Sequence record: PZ452614.1
Strand: one strand, 5' to 3'
Length of the DNA: 39,092 nt
From: a phage
In this document: positions 2,507 to 38,486 of the stretch, in pieces
Layout: the number at the start of each line of letters is the position of its first letter
Numbering within the stretch: the stretch's first letter is position 1
Notes under the pieces: model-generated
The model's input: the letters and a program-made list of their open reading frames with translations, nothing else
Told to the model about the DNA's origin: nothing
Databases searched by the model: none
Made by a program: the position numbers and the translations under genes

Positions 2507-4267
2507 TTACATAGATGTTTCGTTTAATTCTTCCCGACGAACGCTGTAAACGTCGGTGGCTTTTGCCAGCAGTTCGTCATCATCTGAAAGTTTTTGTGCA
2601 ATGTATTTGTAAGCCTTATCCAGTTCGGAGACAGTGCTGTAATTCATCGCTGCGCTGGTAAAGGCCATCAGCATTTCTTCTGGATCACGGCTATCCGCTT
2701 TACGAGTTTGCTCATCAGGCTTTTTCACTGGTTTAGCGTTGATCAGACTGTTCATTCCCGCAGCAGTGGTCGTTTGCGGAGTAATGTCTCGCTCAACGCG
2801 CGGTGCCGTTTCCTGTAATTCGTCTGGTGTGTAGACGCCCATGATTACGTCAGGACAGTGCAAGCGAGACCAGCGTTTTGTCGCAAGGTATGCGAGTTGT
2901 TGTTTCGGATCACTGGCCCAAAGTGTGGAGTTTCTTACCTGTGCTTGAGACAGCATTAACTCAAGCACTCGAGGTTGATCCTCGCCCTTCATGGTTGCCC
3001 ATACGCGAACACCGCAGCCTTCTTCGTCTTTTAGAGTCCAGCCTGGTGCGATATATGGATTGCCGTTTTTGGATGTTTTCTCAACAAACTTACCGATCAC
3101 GCGTTCCCACGGCCCGAACCACTCGTAGTTGATGCGATCTTTTGTTGGCGACATCGTTGAGATAACTGCGTTTACTAATTGGGCTTCATAACCTAGCGTG
3201 CCGTTCACAACATGGGTTTTCTGAGCCACGGCAAACGGGTTCATTCCCCACTGCGCAGCCTGCATTGCCACGGCCATGCAATCAGCTGGTTTCCCGGCGA
3301 GGTGCGCCGGTACCGTTACGCGGCTTTGCGCCATTACCTCGGCGAATTTCATCAGTTGGTTCAAGCCGTCTGGGCTGAAAATAGTTGCAGCAGTTCCAGC
3401 GATTGCTGTGTCTACTGGTGCGTTGATGTTTGCGATGTCGTTGCTCATATGTACATATCCTGTTTTGCGTGCCCACTCAGGGCGTTTAATGATTTCCACA
3501 CCGCCCCATTCATCATTTATGCGGCATTCGTGATAGGTATTCAGATCCCGGCGGAACAGAGCGTGCCCGGCATCGACATCCGGCGCATCCAGCTCGAACA
3601 CGCGTACCGGATACCGACCACAATCAATGCTTTCGCTCACGGCAAGAAAGAAAAAACCATGCGGCTGACCAGTAACCCTCATTGCGCCTTCGCGGTACAT
3701 TGCGTCCTGCACGTGGTAGCGGAATTCCTCGATGTGGCGTGCAAAACGGTCCATATCTGCAACCTTTTTCACGTCGACGATCACGTTGTGCTCGTTCAGC
3801 CATTTGTCTGGACGAATGCGGCACAACTCACCAGTATCTTCATCATTCCAGTACATTGATGCTTCGCAGAAACCAGGTGCTTCCAGCATCCAGCGTGCCG
3901 CCGGGTGAGCCATTGCGCTATCACGCATCAGCTCCAGTTTCCGCCACTGCTCGGCATCAAGTACCGTAATCCCCATATCCGCTACATCACGAAGAAATGC
4001 TTCTTCGTCAGCTTTACCTTGTTTCGTCCGACGATCGAACTTCGGTGAAACAATGAAGCGTTTGTCGAATTCTCCAGGCTCCAGAAGCAGACAGTGCAAT
4101 GCGGTTCCAATATCCAGTGCAGACTTTTTCTCTTCGTCTTCTGGTGCTGCCTGGACCCATTTAAGAAGCGACGGATTCTTGGCAACCATGTCCAGTTGCG
4201 ACTTACTCACGCCGTCACCGGCGTGGTAGTCTTCGTTGCTGATGTCGAAATAAATTCCCGGTTTCAT
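2507..4267 (-). CDS. PD-(D/E)XK exonuclease (RecE/Exo VIII-like N-terminal domain) fused to a C-terminal domain of uncertain identity, possibly RecT-like annealase
   Basis: N-terminus DISNEDYHAGDGVSKSQL… typical of exodeoxyribonuclease VIII PDDEXK-like proteins; continuous 586-aa ORF. Confidence 0.7.
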   Translation of the reverse strand: MKPGIYFDISNEDYHAGDGVSKSQLDMVAKNPSLLKWVQAAPEDEEKKSALDIGTALHCLLLEPGEFDKRFIVSPKFDRRTKQGKADEEAFLRDVADMGITVLDAEQWRKLELMRDSAMAHPAARWMLEAPGFCEASMYWNDEDTGELCRIRPDKWLNEHNVIVDVKKVADMDRFARHIEEFRYHVQDAMYREGAMRVTGQPHGFFFLAVSESIDCGRYPVRVFELDAPDVDAGHALFRRDLNTYHECRINDEWGGVEIIKRPEWARKTGYVHMSNDIANINAPVDTAIAGTAATIFSPDGLNQLMKFAEVMAQSRVTVPAHLAGKPADCMAVAMQAAQWGMNPFAVAQKTHVVNGTLGYEAQLVNAVISTMSPTKDRINYEWFGPWERVIGKFVEKTSKNGNPYIAPGWTLKDEEGCGVRVWATMKGEDQPRVLELMLSQAQVRNSTLWASDPKQQLAYLATKRWSRLHCPDVIMGVYTPDELQETAPRVERDITPQTTTAAGMNSLINAKPVKKPDEQTRKADSRDPEEMLMAFTSAAMNYSTVSELDKAYKYIAQKLSDDDELLAKATDVYSVRREELNETSM

Positions 4268-4563
4268 GCCGCGTCCCTCTGTCCATCAAGCTGATCCGCC
4301 AGATCCCAGCGGGCGATAATTGCCATTGCCTCTCGCCGATAGGCATCCATCAGTTCTTCGAACTCAGGGCTGTCTTTAGCAGCCTCCAGTACTTCCTGAC
4401 GAACGCCTTTGCCTGTTACAACGTCAAAAGTTGAGGACAGTTGATGAAGTCGGATGCTCTCAATCAGTTCAACTTGTCGGTCATATAGCTGTTCTGACAG
4501 GCGGTAGTCCTTGTCGAATGCCAGCATGATTTTTTGAAGATTTTTCTGCTGATTAACGTTCAT
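4264..4563 (-). CDS. Hypothetical protein (about 99 aa), first sizeable gene of the leftward early operon
   Basis: ATG at 4563 preceded by GGAGGG; stop overlaps exonuclease start (ATGA). Confidence 0.5.
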   Translation of the reverse strand: MNVNQQKNLQKIMLAFDKDYRLSEQLYDRQVELIESIRLHQLSSTFDVVTGKGVRQEVLEAAKDSPEFEELMDAYRREAMAIIARWDLADQLDGQRDAA

Positions 4564-28737: not shown

Positions 28738-31212
28738 ATGAGACAGGAATGTATACAAGCGGTCCAGCAGGCGGCGCAGCGCACGTTAACAGCGCGAGAA
28801 ATACAGAACATTGAAGACCGCATTTATCGAAATATGCGCTCCATTGCTCGTGATGACCCGATGTCGTGGAGACAACTTTCCGAATCAGAGCGGCTATATC
28901 GTGCAGCACAATTGGCATCTGAAGAATTACAGCGAGAAGCGGCATTAAAGAAACGTCGTGTGGCCCTCACTATAGCCGCACGTCAGAGATTGGATAAATT
29001 TATCAATAGCTATCAAGGGGCTGATGGGAAACTTGGCGCTCTTAACCGTACTATTGCTTTTAATGCAGACGGTAAATCGAATTTCCTCTCTGTTGAGTCC
29101 AGAACAAAAGCCACTCGTGATTATGCATTGAGTCAATTGCAAGAGGCATTTGAAGCAGTTGATCCTCGCTTTTTTGGCCTGTTTGAAGATGAAGCTGGCG
29201 TGCGTGACCTGGTATATGAAATGCGAGGGCAAAATACTGGCAATGCTAAAGCAAGAAAAGGTGCTAAGGCGTGGAGAGAAGTGACAGATCTACTGCGCCG
29301 CCGGTTTAATGATGCTGGTGGGGACATTGGCTATCTCGAAAACTGGGGGATCCCTCAACATCATTCTATGGAAAAGGTTGGGGCGGTATCAAAGGATAAG
29401 TGGGTTAGCGATGTTATAGGTAAGCTGGATCGCAAATATTATATCCGAGCCGATGGACAACTGATGAACGATGCCGAGTTGTCTGCATTTCTTGGAGAGG
29501 CTTATAACACGATCGCTACTGGTGGGCTGAATAAGCTTACTGATACCGGAATGCGAATTTCCGGCGCACGTGCTAACCGTGGTAATGCATCACGACAGAT
29601 ACATTTCAAAGATGCAGATTCCTATCTGCAATATCAGCAACTTTATGGCGATCGCTCTCTATGGGAAATCATGGTCGGTCACTTGGAAGGTATCAGTAAA
29701 GATATTGCACTGGTGGAAACATATGGCCCAAACCCCGATCATGTTTTCCGCTCTCTTCTTGATCAGGTGAAGGCAGAAACGGCAACAGCTAACCCGAGTA
29801 AAACCGGTAAAGTCGAGCGGCTGGCGAACAACACAGAGAATCTGTACAACTTTATTTCCGGAAAGACACAGCCTGTAGCGAATCCGCACATCTCGCGATG
29901 GTCTGACAATATCCGCAACTGGCTGGTTGCCAGCAGACTCGGATCCGCGTTGCTGTCATCGTTCTCTGATCTTGGAACCATGTATCTGTCTGCGAAGGTT
30001 ACCAACCTTCCAATGAACCAGTTATTCCGCAACCAGCTTGAAGCTATGGACCCAACGAACCGTACAGAACTTGCGCGGGCGCGCCGCGCTGGTCTGGCGA
30101 TGGAATCTCTACTTGGCAGCGTTAACCGCTGGGCGATGGATAATATGGGGCCGTCAGTGTCTCGTTGGGCGGCAACGGCGGTAATGCGTGCCAGTGGGCT
30201 TACAGCATGGTCAGATGCGCACAAGCGCGCCTATGGCGTAACCATGATGGGAAGCCTGGGAGAAGTAGTGTCACGGACACCAGACCTTCGTAGCCTCGAT
30301 GATTCTGATTTTCGTATCCTGAAAAGCAAAGGGATTACTGACACAGACTGGAGCGTATGGAAGTTGGCGCAACAGGAGGACTGGGGGAACGGTAATAATA
30401 CGATGCTGACACCGGAAAGCATTATGCGTATCCCTGATTCAGCAGTTAAACATCTTGGTGAGCCTGAACGCGTGAAGTTTGAGGCAATGCGTAAACTGCT
30501 CGGTGCCGTAACTGAAGAAGTTGATATGGCTGTTATTACACCGGGAGCACGTGAGCAACTGATAACCGGTTCTGGTATTCAGCGTGGAACATGGAAAGGT
30601 GAATTAACGAGAAGTGTTTTCCTGTTTAAATCGTTCCCTATCTCGGTTGTTATGCGTCACTGGTCACGCGCTATGGGTATACCGTCTGCTGGTGGGCGTG
30701 CGGCATATATTGCGACGTTTATTGCCAGTACGACCATTCTTGGCGCTTTGTCGCAGCAACTTAACGACCTTGCGTCTGGTCGTAATCCTCGAGAGATGAC
30801 AGGAGGAGATGCCGCAAAATTCTGGCTTGGTGCTCTACTGAAAGGTGGTGGTCTTGGCCTTTACGGTGACTTTTTATTGTCAGATCACACTAGGTACGGA
30901 AGCGGCGCGCTGGCGTCGATGCTTGGCCCGGTAGCTGGTCTGGTTGATGACGTAGTGAAGATTGCTCAGGGCATACCGTTAAATGCTGTGGAAGGGAAGA
31001 ATGAGCAGACTGGTGGTGATCTGGTTAAGCTGGGGAAAGGTCTGATGCCAGGTGCGAATCTCTGGTACTTAAAGGCGGCTCTCGATCACATGATCTTTAA
31101 CCAGATGCAGGAGTATTTTTCACCAGGTTATTTGCGTAAAATGGAGCAACGTTCGAAGAAAGAGTTTAACCAGACATACTGGTGGCGACCACAGGATGTC
31201 ACTCCGCAATAA
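28738..31212 (+). CDS. Internal virion / ejection protein (824 aa)
   Basis: Size and position; Shine-Dalgarno GAGAGG. Confidence 0.55.
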   Translation: MRQECIQAVQQAAQRTLTAREIQNIEDRIYRNMRSIARDDPMSWRQLSESERLYRAAQLASEELQREAALKKRRVALTIAARQRLDKFINSYQGADGKLGALNRTIAFNADGKSNFLSVESRTKATRDYALSQLQEAFEAVDPRFFGLFEDEAGVRDLVYEMRGQNTGNAKARKGAKAWREVTDLLRRRFNDAGGDIGYLENWGIPQHHSMEKVGAVSKDKWVSDVIGKLDRKYYIRADGQLMNDAELSAFLGEAYNTIATGGLNKLTDTGMRISGARANRGNASRQIHFKDADSYLQYQQLYGDRSLWEIMVGHLEGISKDIALVETYGPNPDHVFRSLLDQVKAETATANPSKTGKVERLANNTENLYNFISGKTQPVANPHISRWSDNIRNWLVASRLGSALLSSFSDLGTMYLSAKVTNLPMNQLFRNQLEAMDPTNRTELARARRAGLAMESLLGSVNRWAMDNMGPSVSRWAATAVMRASGLTAWSDAHKRAYGVTMMGSLGEVVSRTPDLRSLDDSDFRILKSKGITDTDWSVWKLAQQEDWGNGNNTMLTPESIMRIPDSAVKHLGEPERVKFEAMRKLLGAVTEEVDMAVITPGAREQLITGSGIQRGTWKGELTRSVFLFKSFPISVVMRHWSRAMGIPSAGGRAAYIATFIASTTILGALSQQLNDLASGRNPREMTGGDAAKFWLGALLKGGGLGLYGDFLLSDHTRYGSGALASMLGPVAGLVDDVVKIAQGIPLNAVEGKNEQTGGDLVKLGKGLMPGANLWYLKAALDHMIFNQMQEYFSPGYLRKMEQRSKKEFNQTYWWRPQDVTPQ

Positions 31213-31221
31213 GGATGAGAA

Positions 31222-31362
31222 ATGATTGCTTTTATTCTTGTTGTGTTTGCGCTTGTTGCACTTGGCGTTATGAACCGTAAATGTATCATTGACTATGGCG
31301 AATTTGCTGTTGCAGTTATTTTGATATTATCTGGTGTAGCAGGGTACATAGGCTTGTCATAA
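31222..31362 (+). CDS. Small hydrophobic protein (46 aa, two predicted membrane helices)
   Basis: ATG after AAGGATGAGAA; followed by a palindrome and terminator; not in the supplied track. Confidence 0.4.
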   Translation: MIAFILVVFALVALGVMNRKCIIDYGEFAVAVILILSGVAGYIGLS

Positions 31363-31381
31363 CGTGAGCGTGACATGTCAC

Positions 31382-31406
31382 AGGCCGCTTTCGCGGCCTT
31401 GTTTTT
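31382..31406 (+). terminator. Rho-independent terminator ending the structural operon
   Basis: Stem aggccgc/gcggcct with loop tttc, then TGTTTTT. Confidence 0.65.
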
Positions 31407-31522
31407 AACGAATGCCGCCTCCGCCCGTCAGAAGAACCCTGCCTTGTCGTTGATGTACTCCGCGTGCGTCTGGATATCACGCAGGCATTTGCTCACACCG
31501 ACGATGTAGCAGAACATGGTGG

Positions 31523-32107
31523 TCAGCTCCGCCGCCGCGCCTGATACATCATGCCCGTCGTCCTGTTCATCAGCAGTGAGTGCTCCGTCAGGCCGAGAAC
31601 ACCAGACGGCGAATGAATCAGGCTACGGTAGCCGGGCTTCAGTGGGGCACTGTAGGTTTTGTTCTCTATCTTCATCGCCTGCATTACTGCTGACGCCGTG
31701 GCGTTGGCTACCTGGTCGGCAACCATCTTTATGCGTTCTTCCTGCGGGAGCGAGTTTTTAATGTAACTTCCGGTGCGGCGGATCTGAGGAAGAACCTCAC
31801 CTGTAACCCATTTACGAAAGCGGTAGGGGATAGTGCCTGGTGTCACCGCATCGCGGCAGCGGAGGATCAGTGTGTAGAGTCCTGACTCGGAGATGATGAT
31901 CGATTCTTGCTCACCGCCAGGGGTGTCGGTTGAAGCGACACCCTTCTCATCATCATCAAGTTTTCGAACAGCATCTCGATGGTTTGCTATGCCTATAGCC
32001 CGACAAACATCTGAAGCGATAAACCATGGCTCACCATTAATGACGATTACCCGTATATCGGCTTGGGATTCGAAAGAAAAAATGGACGTGCTTTTTGTAG
32101 CTGTCAT
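31523..32107 (-). CDS. Antirepressor with Bro-N domain
   Basis: …FSFESQADIRVIVINGEPWFIASDVCRAIGIANHRDAVRKLDDDEKGV… matches the Bro-N pattern; Shine-Dalgarno AAGGTAA. Confidence 0.8.
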   Translation of the reverse strand: MTATKSTSIFSFESQADIRVIVINGEPWFIASDVCRAIGIANHRDAVRKLDDDEKGVASTDTPGGEQESIIISESGLYTLILRCRDAVTPGTIPYRFRKWVTGEVLPQIRRTGSYIKNSLPQEERIKMVADQVANATASAVMQAMKIENKTYSAPLKPGYRSLIHSPSGVLGLTEHSLLMNRTTGMMYQARRRS

Positions 32108-32263
32108 AGTGGTTACCTTTTAGTCTGGTTAATCACCACTACCTACGCCAATCGGTTGGTGGTGAACTGTGCAGGGTTGGCGTAACCGGCTAAAAGGACC
32201 CGGCGCACCTTTCGGTGCCCCCACACAGCCCACCATAATACGAATGTGACCGTGCTATACGCA

Positions 32264-32872: not shown

Positions 32873-35500
32873 ATGACGGTCTCAACCGAAGTTAACCACA
32901 ACGAATACACCGGTAACGGTGTTACGACATCATTTCCGTATACCTTTAGGGTTTTCAAGGAATCTGATCTGGTAGTACAGGTTGTTGACCTGAACGATAA
33001 CATCACTGTTCTGACGCTGGATACTGACTACACAGTAACCGGCGCAGGGGGATATGAAGGTGGTAATGTAATACTTGCAACAGCTCTGGCTAATGGTTAC
33101 CAGATTTCCATATCACGTGAACTGTCGGTTACGCAGGAAACAGATCTCCGTAACCAGGGGAAGTTCTTTGCTGAGGTGCATGAGGATGCGTTTGATAAGC
33201 TGACAATGTTGATTCAGCAGGTTCGTAGTTGGTTTAGTCTGGCGCTACGTAAGCCGTCATTTGTTGCTAACTATTACGACGCAATGGACAACTATATTCG
33301 TAACCTTCGTGACCCTGTAAGACCGCAGGATGCGGCTACAAAAAAATATGTTGATGGGGTCGCAGAAACAAACCTGAGCAGAACGCTACGAACCCCTGAG
33401 CCGATACCAGCATTGCCGGGAATTGAGCAACGTAAGAATAAGATTGTTGCAATGGATGATACTGGAAATCCGATAATGGTTTTGCCTGAATCTGGTTCGG
33501 CTACTGATGTAATGATCCAGTTAGCGGCAAATGATGGATTTAAGTTTATTGGTCAGTGCCCTGATATATTGACACTAAGAACAATAGAACCTGAAAAAAA
33601 TGGTCAAAGGATCACGTTGCGACAGCATACGATCGGAACTGGGCTTGGTGGAGGGGTATTCAGAGCTGTACTTGATGGAACTGGCTATACCGATGATGAT
33701 GGTGTTGTAATAAAAACAGCAGGTGGTTCTGTATGGTTACGGGTTAATGCAGATAAGGTTAATCCGTTTATGTTTGGGGCCACTGGCGTGGCTGATGATA
33801 CAGCAGCACTGCAAAAGATGCTTGAATGTGGCAGGGCGGCTGAGCTTGGCACAAATGTCTGGAAAGCATCTAATCTTGAGCTAAATAACAAGTCGTGTTC
33901 ACTATCTGGGTCTGGTCTACACGTTTCCAGGATAGAGCAAATATCTGGGGCAACAGGCGCGTTACTGACAATTACTCAGGATTGCAGCCTGATTTATTTG
34001 TCCGATTGTGGCCTGTATGGGGATGGAATAACTGCGGGAACAAGCGGGGTAACGATGGAGACAGGAAACCCAGGTGGGGCACCAAGCTATCCATTCAATA
34101 CCGCCCCTGACGTTCGTAGGGATCTTTACATTAGCAATGTTCACATTACAGGATTTGACGAGTTAGGATTTGATTATCCTGAAACGAATTTTTCCGTCTC
34201 AACGCATGGATTATTCATAAGAAACATTAAAAAAACCGGGGCTAAGATCGGAACTACCGATTTTACATGGACAAACCTTCAAATTGATACGTGTGGGCAG
34301 GAATGCTTAGTGCTTGATGGTGCTGGTAATTGCAGAATTATAGGTGCCAAATTAATTTGGGCTGGTTCAGAAAATGAAACACCATATTCAGGATTACGTA
34401 TTTCTAATTCACAAAATGTAAACATGACAGGAGTTGAGTTACAGGACTGTGCATACGATGGATTGTATATTAAAAATTCAACTGTTGCTATCAGTGGGTT
34501 GAATACTAACAGAAATAGTGCATCATCAAATCTGTCATACCATAATATGGTTTTTGAAAACAGTATAGTAACTGTAGATGGTTATGTTTGCCGTAACTAT
34601 GCTGCTACATCGCTATATGATCTAAATTCACAAGCCGGAAATGTGAGGTGTATTGGTTCCGATAGTACCGTATTGATAAATGGTATTTACGAGTCAGAAG
34701 TAAACAGCGAACGACTCATGGGTGACAATAATCTTATTCAGCCATATTCTGGTGATTTAATAATAAATGGCCTAAAAAACTATTATACATATACAGGAAG
34801 CGTAAAAAACAATATTCCTACATTTGACGGAGTCGTTACAACCGCAACATATGTAAGCGCTCCTTCGATACTAGGGCAAGGAAACATGCTTAAGTTAACG
34901 CAATCAAACAAGGATAAGTTATTATTTTCTGATAAAGTATCGAGACATGGGTGTACAATCGGCCTTGTTCTAATCCCGTCATTTACGGGTGCAACAACTA
35001 TGACAGCTTTCACTCTGGGGAGTGGATATTCGCCCTCTGGAAACTCTGCTGTTATGCAATTTATAGTTAACTCCAGTGGTGTGCAGACTATAGCAATATT
35101 ATTATCCGGTGATGGTATAACTCAAACGTTAACAAGCGATCTGACAACGGAGCAAGCGTTAGCTTCAGGAGGCGTATATCATTTTGCGATGGGATTCGCT
35201 CCAGGCCGATTATGGTGGTCTATTATTGATATAAATACCGGAAGGCGTATACGACGGGCGTACAGACAACCAGATCTTCACGCCGCATTTAATAGCATAT
35301 TCAACAGCGGAACATCTTCTATCACCGCATTTTCAGGACCATTAGCAGGTGATATTGCATGTGAAGGGGCAGGTTCGCATGTTTATGTTGGCGGTTTCTC
35401 ATCTGAGTCAGACTACGCAGCGAGCAGAATGTACGGATTATTTACCCCAGTAGACCTGGATAAACAATACTCATTCCGCACGCTGAACGGAAATATTTAA
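32873..35500 (+). CDS. Tailspike protein
   Basis: 875 aa; conserved-looking N-terminal domain, then repetitive Gly/Asn/Ser-rich beta-helix-like C-terminal part with lower GC. Confidence 0.8.
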   Translation: MTVSTEVNHNEYTGNGVTTSFPYTFRVFKESDLVVQVVDLNDNITVLTLDTDYTVTGAGGYEGGNVILATALANGYQISISRELSVTQETDLRNQGKFFAEVHEDAFDKLTMLIQQVRSWFSLALRKPSFVANYYDAMDNYIRNLRDPVRPQDAATKKYVDGVAETNLSRTLRTPEPIPALPGIEQRKNKIVAMDDTGNPIMVLPESGSATDVMIQLAANDGFKFIGQCPDILTLRTIEPEKNGQRITLRQHTIGTGLGGGVFRAVLDGTGYTDDDGVVIKTAGGSVWLRVNADKVNPFMFGATGVADDTAALQKMLECGRAAELGTNVWKASNLELNNKSCSLSGSGLHVSRIEQISGATGALLTITQDCSLIYLSDCGLYGDGITAGTSGVTMETGNPGGAPSYPFNTAPDVRRDLYISNVHITGFDELGFDYPETNFSVSTHGLFIRNIKKTGAKIGTTDFTWTNLQIDTCGQECLVLDGAGNCRIIGAKLIWAGSENETPYSGLRISNSQNVNMTGVELQDCAYDGLYIKNSTVAISGLNTNRNSASSNLSYHNMVFENSIVTVDGYVCRNYAATSLYDLNSQAGNVRCIGSDSTVLINGIYESEVNSERLMGDNNLIQPYSGDLIINGLKNYYTYTGSVKNNIPTFDGVVTTATYVSAPSILGQGNMLKLTQSNKDKLLFSDKVSRHGCTIGLVLIPSFTGATTMTAFTLGSGYSPSGNSAVMQFIVNSSGVQTIAILLSGDGITQTLTSDLTTEQALASGGVYHFAMGFAPGRLWWSIIDINTGRRIRRAYRQPDLHAAFNSIFNSGTSSITAFSGPLAGDIACEGAGSHVYVGGFSSESDYAASRMYGLFTPVDLDKQYSFRTLNGNI

Positions 35501-36639: not shown

Positions 36640-36688
36640 GGACTCACCAACTAAGGGGGTTCTTTATGCACAGTAAACGGTGGTAATT

Positions 36689-37093
36689 ATGTCAGCAGGG
36701 CTAACCAGTGAGTCATTAAATCAGTGGCTTAGCATGGGGTCTCTTGCTGCAGTAATTGCAGGTGTTCCGCCAGAAGTTGCGCTTGGTGCTCTGGCTGGTG
36801 CGGTAATCTTTGTTACCTCGGCAGTTGAGTATCCAATCCGTCGCCGCGTGCTCCTGTCGTTGCTCAGCTTCCTCTGCGGCCTTCTCTTCTACAAACCCAC
36901 AGCGTCGATCCTTATCGGCTTTGCCAGCCTGATCCCTACCATCACTCAGGACTCTTTCGAGAAAGGGATCGTCTTCTCTGCTGGCGCATTCGTGTCAGCA
37001 ATAGTCGCAGTGCGCATTGGCATCTGGCTCTATCACCGTTCTGACAATCCACGCGAGTTAATTCCGGGGAGAAAAGACGATGACAACTCATGA
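36689..37093 (+). CDS. Holin (putative)
   Basis: Hydrophobic segments; ATG at 36689 after GGTGG; first gene of the lysis cassette. Confidence 0.6.
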   Translation: MSAGLTSESLNQWLSMGSLAAVIAGVPPEVALGALAGAVIFVTSAVEYPIRRRVLLSLLSFLCGLLFYKPTASILIGFASLIPTITQDSFEKGIVFSAGAFVSAIVAVRIGIWLYHRSDNPRELIPGRKDDDNS

Positions 37094-37388
37094 GCTGCTT
37101 TTGCTTATTGCTAATGCGGTTATCTGTTCATGTATAGCGATCCGCGTCGGTACGTTCCGGCGTAACGGTTCACAACATCGCAGATGGGGAGGGTGGATCG
37201 CTTACTTCCTCATTGTGGCCGCTGCCAGCATCCCGGTACGTGCCGCGTACGCTTTCTGGTACCACACGCCAATGACCGACGATCTTTCGGAGGTTGTCAT
37301 CAACGCTGTCATGCTTGCCGCCGTTCTGAAAACCCGCGGTAACGTCGTGCAGATTTTCAAAATAACGAGGTCTCAACATGGAGATTAA
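37080..37388 (+). CDS. Second holin-like membrane protein
   Basis: 102 aa with two or three hydrophobic segments; overlaps the holin stop. Confidence 0.5.
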   Translation: MTTHELLLLIANAVICSCIAIRVGTFRRNGSQHRRWGGWIAYFLIVAAASIPVRAAYAFWYHTPMTDDLSEVVINAVMLAAVLKTRGNVVQIFKITRSQHGD

Positions 37389-38007
37389 ACAATTCCAGCG
37401 AGCTGCTGGTATTAGCGAGGCGCTGGCCGCACGCTGGTTCTCGCATATAACTTCTGCGATGAAAGAGTTTGGTATCAGCAAAGCTGAAGATCAGGCAATG
37501 TTTATTGCTCAGGTCGGGCATGAGTCTGGTGGTTTCATCCGGTTGCAGGAGAATTTCAACTACAGTGTCACCGGACTGGCTAACTTCGTTCGGGCTGGGC
37601 GTCTCGCTCAGGGACAGGCCAACGCATTGGGTCGCCGCGCAGGCGAACCTCCATTGCCACTCGAGCGCCAGAGAGCGATCGCCAATCTGGTGTACAGCAA
37701 ACGCATGGGTAACAATGCTCCCGGCGATGGCTGGAATTACCGTGGGCGCGGGCTTATCCAGATTACCGGTTTGAATAACTATCGTGATTGCGGAAACGGT
37801 CTGAAGGTTGACCTGCTGGAGAGCCCTGAATTGCTGGCGCATGACGAATATGCGGCTCGTAGCGCAGCGTGGTTCTTTGCCAGCAAAGGATGCATGAAGT
37901 ATACCGGCGATATTGCACGTGTAACTCTGATTATCAATGGTGGCCGGAACGGCATCGACGACCGGCGCGCGCGGTACATCACTGCCAGTAAGGTGCTGGC
38001 GGTATGA
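37378..38007 (+). CDS. Endolysin, glycoside hydrolase family 19
   Basis: …FIAQVGHESGGF… and …NYRGRGLIQITG… GH19 motifs. Confidence 0.88.
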   Translation: MEIKQFQRAAGISEALAARWFSHITSAMKEFGISKAEDQAMFIAQVGHESGGFIRLQENFNYSVTGLANFVRAGRLAQGQANALGRRAGEPPLPLERQRAIANLVYSKRMGNNAPGDGWNYRGRGLIQITGLNNYRDCGNGLKVDLLESPELLAHDEYAARSAAWFFASKGCMKYTGDIARVTLIINGGRNGIDDRRARYITASKVLAV

Positions 38008-38486
38008 TCTGGGCATTCGCAAAAGCATACTGGAAACAGTTAATTATCGTGGTGATGCTTGCTGTTCTGGTCATATCCGGAATTGTTGCTTGGAATGTGC
38101 ACGGTAGCCGTCAGTACGACGCCGGGTATGTGCAGGCGAAGGAAGAGCGCAAAGCCGAAGATGAGAAAGTTCGTCAGCACTACGAACAGGAGAAAGCGAT
38201 CAATGAACGTGAAGCGCAGCAGAGGATCGACCAGGCGCGCAATGATGCTCTTGATGCTGCCGCTCGCGCTGGCCGGTTGCAGAAACAGCTCGTTGCCATC
38301 CGTGAGCAGCTCAGGCAGTATAACGCCATTGTCGGCGCTGGGACGTCAGCCGCAGACACCGGAGTTTTGCTTGCCGACGTGCTCAGCAAATCTCTCGAGA
38401 GAAACAGACAACTGGCAGAGTATGCTGACCGGGCAGCCGAAGCCGGAAGAGTCTGCGAAAAACAGTATGACACCCTGACAAGATAG
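38004..38486 (+). CDS. i-spanin (Rz-like)
   Basis: N-terminal membrane helix, coiled-coil periplasmic domain; follows the endolysin. Confidence 0.65.
   Translation: MIWAFAKAYWKQLIIVVMLAVLVISGIVAWNVHGSRQYDAGYVQAKEERKAEDEKVRQHYEQEKAINEREAQQRIDQARNDALDAAARAGRLQKQLVAIREQLRQYNAIVGAGTSAADTGVLLADVLSKSLERNRQLAEYADRAAEAGRVCEKQYDTLTR
38242..38478 (+). CDS. o-spanin (Rz1-like) embedded in the +1 frame of the i-spanin gene
   Basis: MMLLMLPLALAGC lipobox signal; Pro/Ser-rich mature part. Confidence 0.6.
   Translation: MMLLMLPLALAGCRNSSLPSVSSSGSITPLSALGRQPQTPEFCLPTCSANLSRETDNWQSMLTGQPKPEESAKNSMTP

Follow-up and report, generated by a model that had tools for sequence, protein, structure and literature searches.

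The T4 protein Imm is an exclusion protein that acts on DNA entry, and the temperate podovirus P22 carries an accessory gene within the order gene 16 - sieA - immI - gene 9. P22 SieA, an inner-membrane protein, acts on the incoming ejection-protein channel and blocks DNA injection, and mutations that escape it fall in the C-termini of the ejection proteins gp16 and gp20 (PMC10883804). [quoted passage not shown] Gene 9 lies downstream of gene 16, and as of 2024 P22 SieA was the only injection-blocking system of short-tailed phages studied so far (PMC10883804). HK97 gp15, a small inner-membrane protein related to YebO and the moron described first, blocks genome entry while leaving the outer-membrane receptor untouched, and is expressed in the prophage from its own promoter (PMC3594210). 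Morons are recognised by extra DNA, deviant GC content, an own terminator and an own promoter (PMC3594210).

The DNA analysed here (the window, 39,092 nt) is the genome of phage phiV10 in a rotated frame, an epsilon15-like temperate podovirus of the genus Uetakevirus. Over 30700-31900 it shows 100% identity to Escherichia phage phiV10 (DQ126339.2 / NC_007804.2) and likewise to two O157 typing phages. Phages of this group are applied in O157:H7 detection and in Salmonella biocontrol. A sequence-only reading of the window had drawn attention to a 46-aa hydrophobic ORF preceded by a Shine-Dalgarno (SD) element and followed by a palindrome and a terminator, and all four elements lie where that reading had placed them. 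The features of the locus, in which we call the interval between the p20 stop codon and the palindrome the slot, are as follows.

28738-31212, plus strand: PhiV10p20 (p20), an 824-aa internal virion / ejection protein (ORF and annotation), whose stop codon bounds the slot on the left.
31211-31216, plus strand: SD element TAAGGA, overlapping the p20 stop and separated by 5 nt (31217-31221) from the ATG at 31222.
31222-31362, plus strand: PhiV10p21 (p21), an ORF of 46 aa from ATG to TAA, MIAFILVVFALVALGVMNRKCIIDYGEFAVAVILILSGVAGYIGLS.
31370-31381: perfect 12-bp palindrome GTGACATGTCAC, 7 nt after the p21 stop and abutting the terminator; it bounds the slot on the right and is invariant.
31382-31406, plus strand: Rho-independent terminator, with the stem-loop AGGCCGC-TTTC-GCGGCCT at 31382-31399 and then TGTTTTT at 31400-31406, annotated in GenBank.
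36680-38486: lysis cassette (two holin-type genes, an endolysin and an Rz-like spanin), about 5 kb from p21.

The TAA stop of p20 occupies 31210-31212 and leaves 9 nt before the p21 start. Positions 31211-31221 read AAGGATGAGAA, where TAAGGA agrees with the SD consensus over its first six bases. The ORF had been described as unannotated, which is true only of a track with a 60-aa cut-off; public records carry it as PhiV10p21, as WP_000559991.1 and in PHROG 7892. Specifically, the GenBank and RefSeq records of phiV10 list p21 (AAZ95943.1 / YP_512275.1) as a putative integral membrane protein with two predicted transmembrane helices, and PGAP calls it as WP_000559991.1 in an O157:H7 lysogen. The gene itself is already known, having been deposited with the same description as the sequence-only reading gave it. 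The literature on phiV10, epsilon15, SPN1S, SPC32H and Uetakevirus yielded no functional, transcriptomic or proteomic data on p21, and the epsilon15 AlphaFold/cryoEM paper leaves gp16-18 unmentioned.

That p21 closes the ejection-protein operon agrees with the identity of its upstream neighbour. Homologs of the 824-aa p20 occur in 133 phage records, epsilon15 gp17 among them; gp17, only ~28% identical to its phiV10 counterpart, has been assigned to the T7 gp16 / IVP-D internal-virion-protein family by Hardies et al. (PMC4819975). Three segments toward the p20 C-terminus (residues ~651-675, 697-715 and 721-745) are moderately hydrophobic. The terminator at 31382-31406 ends the whole late structural / ejection operon, and downstream of p21 lie a convergent Bro-N antirepressor gene and, beyond it, the tailspike gene (32873-35500). 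A consensus scan of the plus strand for sigma-70-like sites found none at 9 of 12 matches in 30400-31221, and at a relaxed 8 of 12 again none in 30800-31221 (422 nt), against a window-wide background of 2.6 per kb. Because no promoter was found, p21 is expected to be expressed late in the lytic cycle and not from the repressed prophage, and it is most simply read as the last cistron of the late operon. GC content shows a modest dip to 0.41-0.44 over 31110-31389, compared with ~0.50 upstream and 0.55-0.60 downstream.

The codon-level evidence establishes p21 as a genuine protein-coding gene under purifying selection. Among 38 clean full-length copies, representing 23 distinct nucleotide alleles, variable sites are distributed 17/6/27 over the three codon positions, and pooled pN/pS rises from 0.21 in frame to 1.69 and 2.72 when the alleles are read out of frame. 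In the same allele set the median pairwise dN/dS is 0.17, and the full-length pair that has diverged furthest shows 25 differences in 138 nt but only 6 in 46 residues. Homologs form 42 clusters in a large protein database; they share 72-96% identity and come from E. coli, Salmonella, Citrobacter and Hafnia. p21 homologs keep their place in the slot even beside upstream genes of only 72-88% identity, which indicates that the p21 family is an old resident of the slot rather than a recent arrival. The sequence-only reading would have been refuted by a reading frame not conserved in relatives; the frame is kept, under purifying selection. On the other hand, decayed alleles also occur, one with a 1-nt deletion that leaves 33 aa and one with a 1-nt insertion that alters the C-terminus, and judged by these frameshifted and truncated alleles p21 is dispensable. 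The phiV10 protein has a tyrosine at position 25, where more than 90% of homologs have aspartate; the phiV10 allele may be a variant or weakened copy.

The description of the ORF as a two-helix membrane protein, set before a palindrome and a strong terminator, is borne out by hydropathy, by structure prediction and by the sequence itself. The window has, over all six frames, 100 ATG-initiated ORFs of 35-60 aa; p21, with a GRAVY of 1.83, is the only one that reaches at least 1.5. AlphaFold2, run on the family alignment, predicts a helical hairpin (mean pLDDT 91.3) with the following parts.

31225-31278: helix 1, residues 2-19 (AlphaFold2).
31279-31293: turn, residues 20-24 (AlphaFold2).
31294-31356: helix 2, residues 25-45 (AlphaFold2).

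The best-conserved features are the inter-helix loop, MNRKxIIxDGEF, and a motif in helix 2, GVAGYxGxS, and in a full profile search both persist in the most distant members; helix 2 also carries small-xxx-small motifs. p21 matches the PHROG 7892 HMM over its full length (E 5.2e-32, 110.6 bits, residues 1-46 on 1-46 of 46), a match that places it in a family to which no function is assigned. A profile search of 1.84 billion representatives retrieved only six clusters (50% identity), all from one narrow family, and therefore gives no remote link from p21 to a characterised protein. The family is confined to Enterobacteriaceae, and every homolog found belongs to a uetakevirus-like phage or prophage. 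p21 matched no Pfam-A family at E <= 0.01 and nothing in NCBIfam at E <= 0.1, and neither p21 nor five alternative slot proteins matched a PADLOC-DB model at E <= 0.1. A Foldseek search of the PDB with the AlphaFold2 model returned generic helical hairpins only, all at E > 2. A PDB profile match of p21 to the designed repeat protein 8erw covered 15 residues with no passing stretch and was rejected as a compositional artefact.

The new finding here is that the slot between the p20 stop and the palindrome-terminator is a cassette hotspot. We surveyed 101 loci anchored on the p20 C-terminus, drawn from phage records, 9 bacterial genomes and 80 IMG/VR contigs. Measured from the p20 stop to the palindrome, the slot has one of several discrete lengths, and its content is unrelated from class to class, as follows.

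157 nt: the 46-aa p21 (phiV10).
187 nt: gp18, 64 aa, two TM (epsilon15).
319 nt: a 102-aa signal-peptide protein (locus L015).
325 nt: a 103-aa two-TM protein (phage Tyrion).
386 nt: a 126-aa lipoprotein alone (locus L101).
488-489 nt: a 57-aa two-TM ORF and a 98-aa three-TM ORF (HEMP4, BUCT711).
562 nt: TM proteins of 58 aa and 92 aa (locus L014).
596 nt: a small TM ORF and a 138-aa lipoprotein with an LVGC lipobox (locus L050).

In the 80 IMG/VR loci the 57-aa ORF occurs 40 times, p21 30 times and the lipoprotein type nine times, with one locus unresolved. The 98-aa ORF accompanies the 57-aa ORF in 39 of those 40 loci; one contig ends too early. The junctions are sharp, in that similarity runs up to the upstream stop codon and returns exactly at the palindrome. 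Each cassette brings its own SD element directly after the upstream stop, with the start codon 9-13 nt later. Relatives with near-identical flanks, or with an upstream gene that is 99% identical, lack p21 and hold other cargo in the slot. Additionally, identical alleles of the 300-aa p20 C-terminus are paired with two or three different cassette classes, so p21 does not co-vary with its structural neighbour, and the idea of p21 as a dedicated partner of p20 was rejected on this ground. Since unrelated cargo is swapped into the slot, p21 is accessory and stands outside the morphogenetic machinery.

In the epsilon15-like group, nearly all of the alternative cargo carries TM helices, a lipobox or a signal peptide. 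The slot is occupied by a lipoprotein in a Pectobacterium prophage and by an unannotated multi-TM ORF in Pseudomonas phage Shamal. The distant podophages KL4, VP2, Ab31 and Skadi have no slot, as their tail-fibre gene comes straight after the gp17 homolog; this marks the slot as an insertion typical of temperate phages of the enterobacterial lineage. The alternative slot proteins showed no informative or characterised family in Pfam, PHROGs or PADLOC; they fall in PHROGs 29212, 3075 and 3716, families to which no function is assigned. For the 98-aa protein there is a sub-threshold match to a Pfam holin family (E 0.027; 15 bits, with a cut-off of 29 bits). Taken together, we are confident that p21 is a real accessory membrane-protein gene residing in a cassette hotspot.

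The right boundary of the slot recurs well beyond it. The window contains two exact copies of GTGACATGTCAC (at 31370 and 14139), where ~0.002 would be expected, and a copy with one mismatch at 11874. The palindrome stands downstream of the slot in ~80 loci, after all cassette classes including that of epsilon15, and several alternative cassette ORFs take their TGA stop from the palindrome; the GGCCGC-N4-GCGGCC stem that follows it is conserved across most cassette classes. In epsilon15, exact copies lie at the three positions syntenic with those of phiV10, one preceding terS, one following terL and one overlapping the stop of gp18. The palindrome usually stands 0-22 nt ahead of an intrinsic terminator, on the strand of the gene that is closed. 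The palindrome-terminator module is present in 532 of 5,426 complete E. coli genomes (~10%), and p21 in 54. The module also ends the structural operon of a second podophage type, which has a ~1130-aa 'DUF919' protein and whose slot holds other cargo. This cargo includes a soluble 149-aa protein, and the hotspot is therefore not exclusively a site for envelope proteins. As a CRP or FNR site the palindrome was rejected: its GTGA/TCAC half-sites are 4 nt apart, and the spacing in the CRP/FNR consensus is 6 nt.

The simplest reading of the palindrome is that of a short conserved linker which, with the conserved upstream gene, would allow cassettes to be swapped by RecET; the palindrome may instead bind a protein or modulate termination. 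Exchange would probably proceed by short-homology recombination, with the conserved 3' end of p20 on one side and the palindrome-terminator module of ~35-50 bp on the other, and would be driven by the phage-encoded RecET; phiV10 encodes RecET. In the construction of a phiV10 reporter phage recET was replaced and the p21 region was left alone.

As no slot occupant belongs to a characterised family, the function of p21 has to be argued from context, which makes an accessory role in the envelope likely and one in exclusion plausible; a function in the virion or in injection is unlikely. Our preferred mechanism is entry exclusion through interference with the ejection channel. The p21 hairpin would insert in the inner membrane, where its conserved loop and the small-xxx-small motifs of helix 2 would mediate helix-helix binding; it would thereby antagonise the inner-membrane step of the ejection-protein channel of competing podophages and block DNA entry. 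We regard this mechanism as possible but doubtful, and the full statement, an accessory hotspot membrane hairpin with entry exclusion as its mode of action, can be put forward tentatively.

The mostly envelope-targeted cargo of the slot speaks for exclusion, as do the P22-like gene order and the precedents set by SieA and HK97 gp15. Against it, p21 has no similarity to any characterised exclusion or defence protein in Pfam, NCBIfam or PADLOC, and has no promoter for expression in the prophage, when exclusion proteins normally act. Moreover, phiV10 lysogens already exclude phiV10 through O-acetylation of the O157 antigen (PMC11854483). The soluble slot protein of the second podophage type and the tyrosine at position 25 of the phiV10 allele also count against it. 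The sequence-only reading had offered superinfection exclusion or an injection-associated function. The former fits the context, namely the hotspot and a P22-like gene order, and lacks the backing of homology or of a promoter; the latter is disfavoured, as is any virion or morphogenetic role, by unrelated cargo beside identical p20 alleles, by frameshifted alleles and by distant relatives that have no slot.

The alternative that survives best, though it is rather unlikely, is that p21 inhibits or modulates a host inner-membrane protein (an enzyme, a transporter or a sensor) and so changes envelope physiology. Bacterial small proteins such as AcrZ and MgtR bind larger membrane proteins. Within the same genus there is a precedent in epsilon15 gp22, recorded as a 66-aa two-TM 'alpha polymerase inhibitor' (of the O-antigen alpha-polymerase), to which Iap of phage D3 is comparable. 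A hairpin with a conserved loop and small-xxx-small motifs, a family confined to Enterobacteriaceae and a slot whose cargo is accessory and swappable would all suit such a role. In a variant of this explanation, p21 would block a membrane-embedded abortive-infection effector late in infection, and a place in the late operon would suit the countering of defences triggered by late proteins. However, p21 has no detectable similarity to gp22, the sequence names no candidate host target, and the lack of an own promoter makes classic lysogenic conversion unlikely.

It is improbable that p21 modulates the timing of lysis, tuning holin triggering as a holin- or antiholin-like protein. p21 is a small two-TM protein co-transcribed with the late genes, and the sub-threshold holin match of the 98-aa alternative protein points the same way, but p21 lacks the hallmarks of a holin: it ends in ...GVAGYIGLS with no hydrophilic charged tail, it matches no holin family in Pfam or PHROGs, and it lies far from the endolysin and spanin, which belong to the complete lysis cassette at 36680-38486. 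The lipoproteins and secreted proteins among the slot alternatives also argue against a role in lysis.

A composite alternative, to which we give little credence, treats the palindrome, which has a terminator beside it at most of its three positions, as a recognition element through which a phage or host protein would govern cassette exchange or else termination and read-through, and the slot as a promoterless site for late envelope effectors. p21 would then be a late TM decoy that binds the membrane-inserting C-terminus of T7-gp16-like proteins and blocks either channel formation by superinfecting podophages in the productive cycle or premature insertion of the phage's own protein.

The prospect that p21 is a partner of the ejection machinery, as a factor packaged in the virion or as an 'immunity' chaperone that keeps the hydrophobic C-terminal segments of p20 from entering the membrane too early in the producer cell, is slim. 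The 9-nt gap would couple its translation closely to that of the IVP-D homolog, the p20 C-terminal segments are moderately hydrophobic, and p21 homologs persist beside upstream genes down to 72% identity; yet two or three unrelated cassettes follow identical p20 C-terminal alleles, p21 is missing from relatives whose upstream gene is 99% identical, the slot is absent from distant ones, p21 alleles can be frameshifted, and the exported lipoproteins found in the same slot cannot be virion components.

Finally, the shortness of p21, its occasional frameshifted alleles and the unusual tyrosine of phiV10 at the nearly invariant D25 could suggest a spurious or decaying ORF whose hydrophobic frame is kept by chance or by hitch-hiking with the terminator, but this is extremely improbable, as pN/pS is low in frame and above 1.6 out of frame, the most divergent pair is 25 nt but only 6 aa apart, the loop and helix-2 motifs are retained down to ~40-50% identity and the SD element is conserved; the codon-level test effectively refutes a meaningless ORF.

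p21 alone adds little, and the hotspot with its conserved palindromic boundary provides the more useful leads. Directly after a T7-gp16-like ejection protein, this hotspot gathers unrelated small membrane, lipoprotein and secreted cargo in epsilon15-like podophages, and its occupants make up a compact panel of candidate entry-exclusion or envelope-modifying proteins.

One of the closest known systems is P22 SieA. Like p21, which is predicted to be a membrane protein, SieA is an accessory inner-membrane protein of a temperate podovirus, encoded between the last ejection gene and the tailspike and beside the antirepressor region; the order here, p20 (IVP-D), p21, the convergent Bro-N antirepressor and the tailspike, parallels that of P22. 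Unlike SieA, p21 has only 46 aa and two predicted helices, contains no proline and no RY dipeptide, and has no promoter that we could find. Inspection of length, helices and motif sets p21 apart from the SieA family, whose members have about 160-200 aa and 3-4 TM helices, and makes no homology evident.

HK97 gp15 resembles p21 as a small membrane protein encoded on an insertion inside the late structural operon, with deviant GC content and a terminator. p21 differs in having no Pfam or YebO match and no detectable promoter. Of the four moron features, p21 shows three (extra DNA, GC content and terminator) and lacks the own promoter, and it is moron-like cargo of a cassette hotspot, not a classic moron.

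Within the genus, epsilon15 gp18 occupies the identical slot, ends at or in GTGACATGTCAC ahead of the terminator, and has the same layout of a TM helix, a short charged loop and a second TM helix. However, gp18 and the other slot occupants show no detectable similarity to p21 and belong to different PHROGs, and some of them are lipoproteins or secreted proteins. Epsilon15 gp22 is likewise a tiny two-TM protein of the same phage genus, annotated as inhibiting a host enzyme of the inner membrane; in contrast to p21, it belongs to the serotype-conversion module, on the opposite strand and downstream of the tailspike, and the two share no sequence similarity. If p21 does act by entry exclusion, it would be a functional analogue, and not a homolog, of P22 SieA, HK97 gp15 or T4 Imm.

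Three syntenic sites common to phiV10 and epsilon15 carry the 12-bp palindrome GTGACATGTCAC: one upstream of terS, a second downstream of terL and a third where the ejection operon ends. The sites (position 11874 being a one-mismatch copy), together with those of TL-2011b, are as follows.

11874-11885, 14139-14150 and 31370-31381: palindrome in phiV10
2142, 19517 and 39612: palindrome in epsilon15 (locus L157)
11500 and 32282: palindrome in TL-2011b (locus L158)

The proteins of phiV10 and epsilon15 share only ~28% identity, a figure that refers to the gp17 homologs. An intrinsic terminator usually lies directly 3' of the palindrome, and the gene before it often takes its TGA stop from the palindrome itself. 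It could serve as a recombination linker or as a protein-binding site.

Beside terL, one further gene ends in the palindrome-plus-terminator arrangement found at the slot of p21, the 46-aa putative membrane protein gene that follows the gp17-type ejection protein gene.

14155-14526, minus strand: 123-aa ORF (PHROG 322), between the large terminase and portal genes and opposite to them in strand

An equivalent of this gene is present in epsilon15, and the ORF looks like a second accessory insertion with the same boundary module as the p21 slot.

Within the slot, p21 itself varies. Specifically, codon 25 (31294-31296) encodes Tyr in phiV10 versus Asp in more than 90% of homologs, and this residue falls inside the most conserved loop motif, MNRKxIIxDGEF; the phiV10 allele may be weakened or may differ in specificity. 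Some prophages that are otherwise alike carry decayed copies of p21 (loci L086 / L150; L062, L067, L076 and L080, equal to L139-L142). In one, a 1-nt deletion leaves a 33-aa product, and in another, a 1-nt insertion rewrites the C-terminus and the palindrome is also mutated (GTGACATGCCAC). Locus L148, in which the query match begins only at residue 17, is not a truncated allele, because its open frame holds a full-length p21 ORF.

Next to the slot, the Bro-N antirepressor gene of phiV10 is also damaged.

31428-32123, minus strand: Bro-N antirepressor gene region of phiV10, with a deletion near 31565

Compared with the O157:H7 TT12B prophage, in which this gene is intact and encodes 231 aa, the phiV10 gene has lost 16 bp. 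The annotated 194-aa p23 is the truncated antirepressor product, and the annotated 29-aa "p22" (31428-31517) is merely an out-of-frame C-terminal remnant of the same gene and very likely not a gene.

The slot, or an equivalent place, recurs in diverged phages with the same or with different cargo.

L168 (Klebsiella phage ST11-OXA245phi3.2), 3531-3881: lipoprotein cassette
L155 (E. coli 2/0), 1600-2553, and L156 (E. coli IHE3034), 1645-2540: slot regions of the "DUF919" type
L007 (Pseudomonas phage Shamal), about 4070-4500: unannotated multi-TM ORF

The L168 cassette, 79% identical to the lipoprotein cassette of the slot, follows a 921-aa structural protein of the size of epsilon15 gp17 and is followed in turn by a convergent antirepressor gene; therefore, the same lipoprotein cargo transfers between diverged lineages with its slot unchanged. 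Additionally, the same palindrome-terminator module closes the operon of a different podophage type with a ~1130-aa "DUF919" structural protein. There the cargo differs, being either a soluble protein of 149 aa or signal-peptide proteins of 146 and 283 aa (L155, L156). Among complete E. coli genomes, 532 of 5,426 carry the module. In Shamal, the multi-TM ORF is held in a 460-nt gap between the gp17 homolog and the tail-fibre gene, and a Pectobacterium odoriferum prophage (L019) carries a lipoprotein (lipobox LSGC) at the equivalent place, just after 5906. Envelope cargo at this position is therefore not confined to the palindrome-bearing group.
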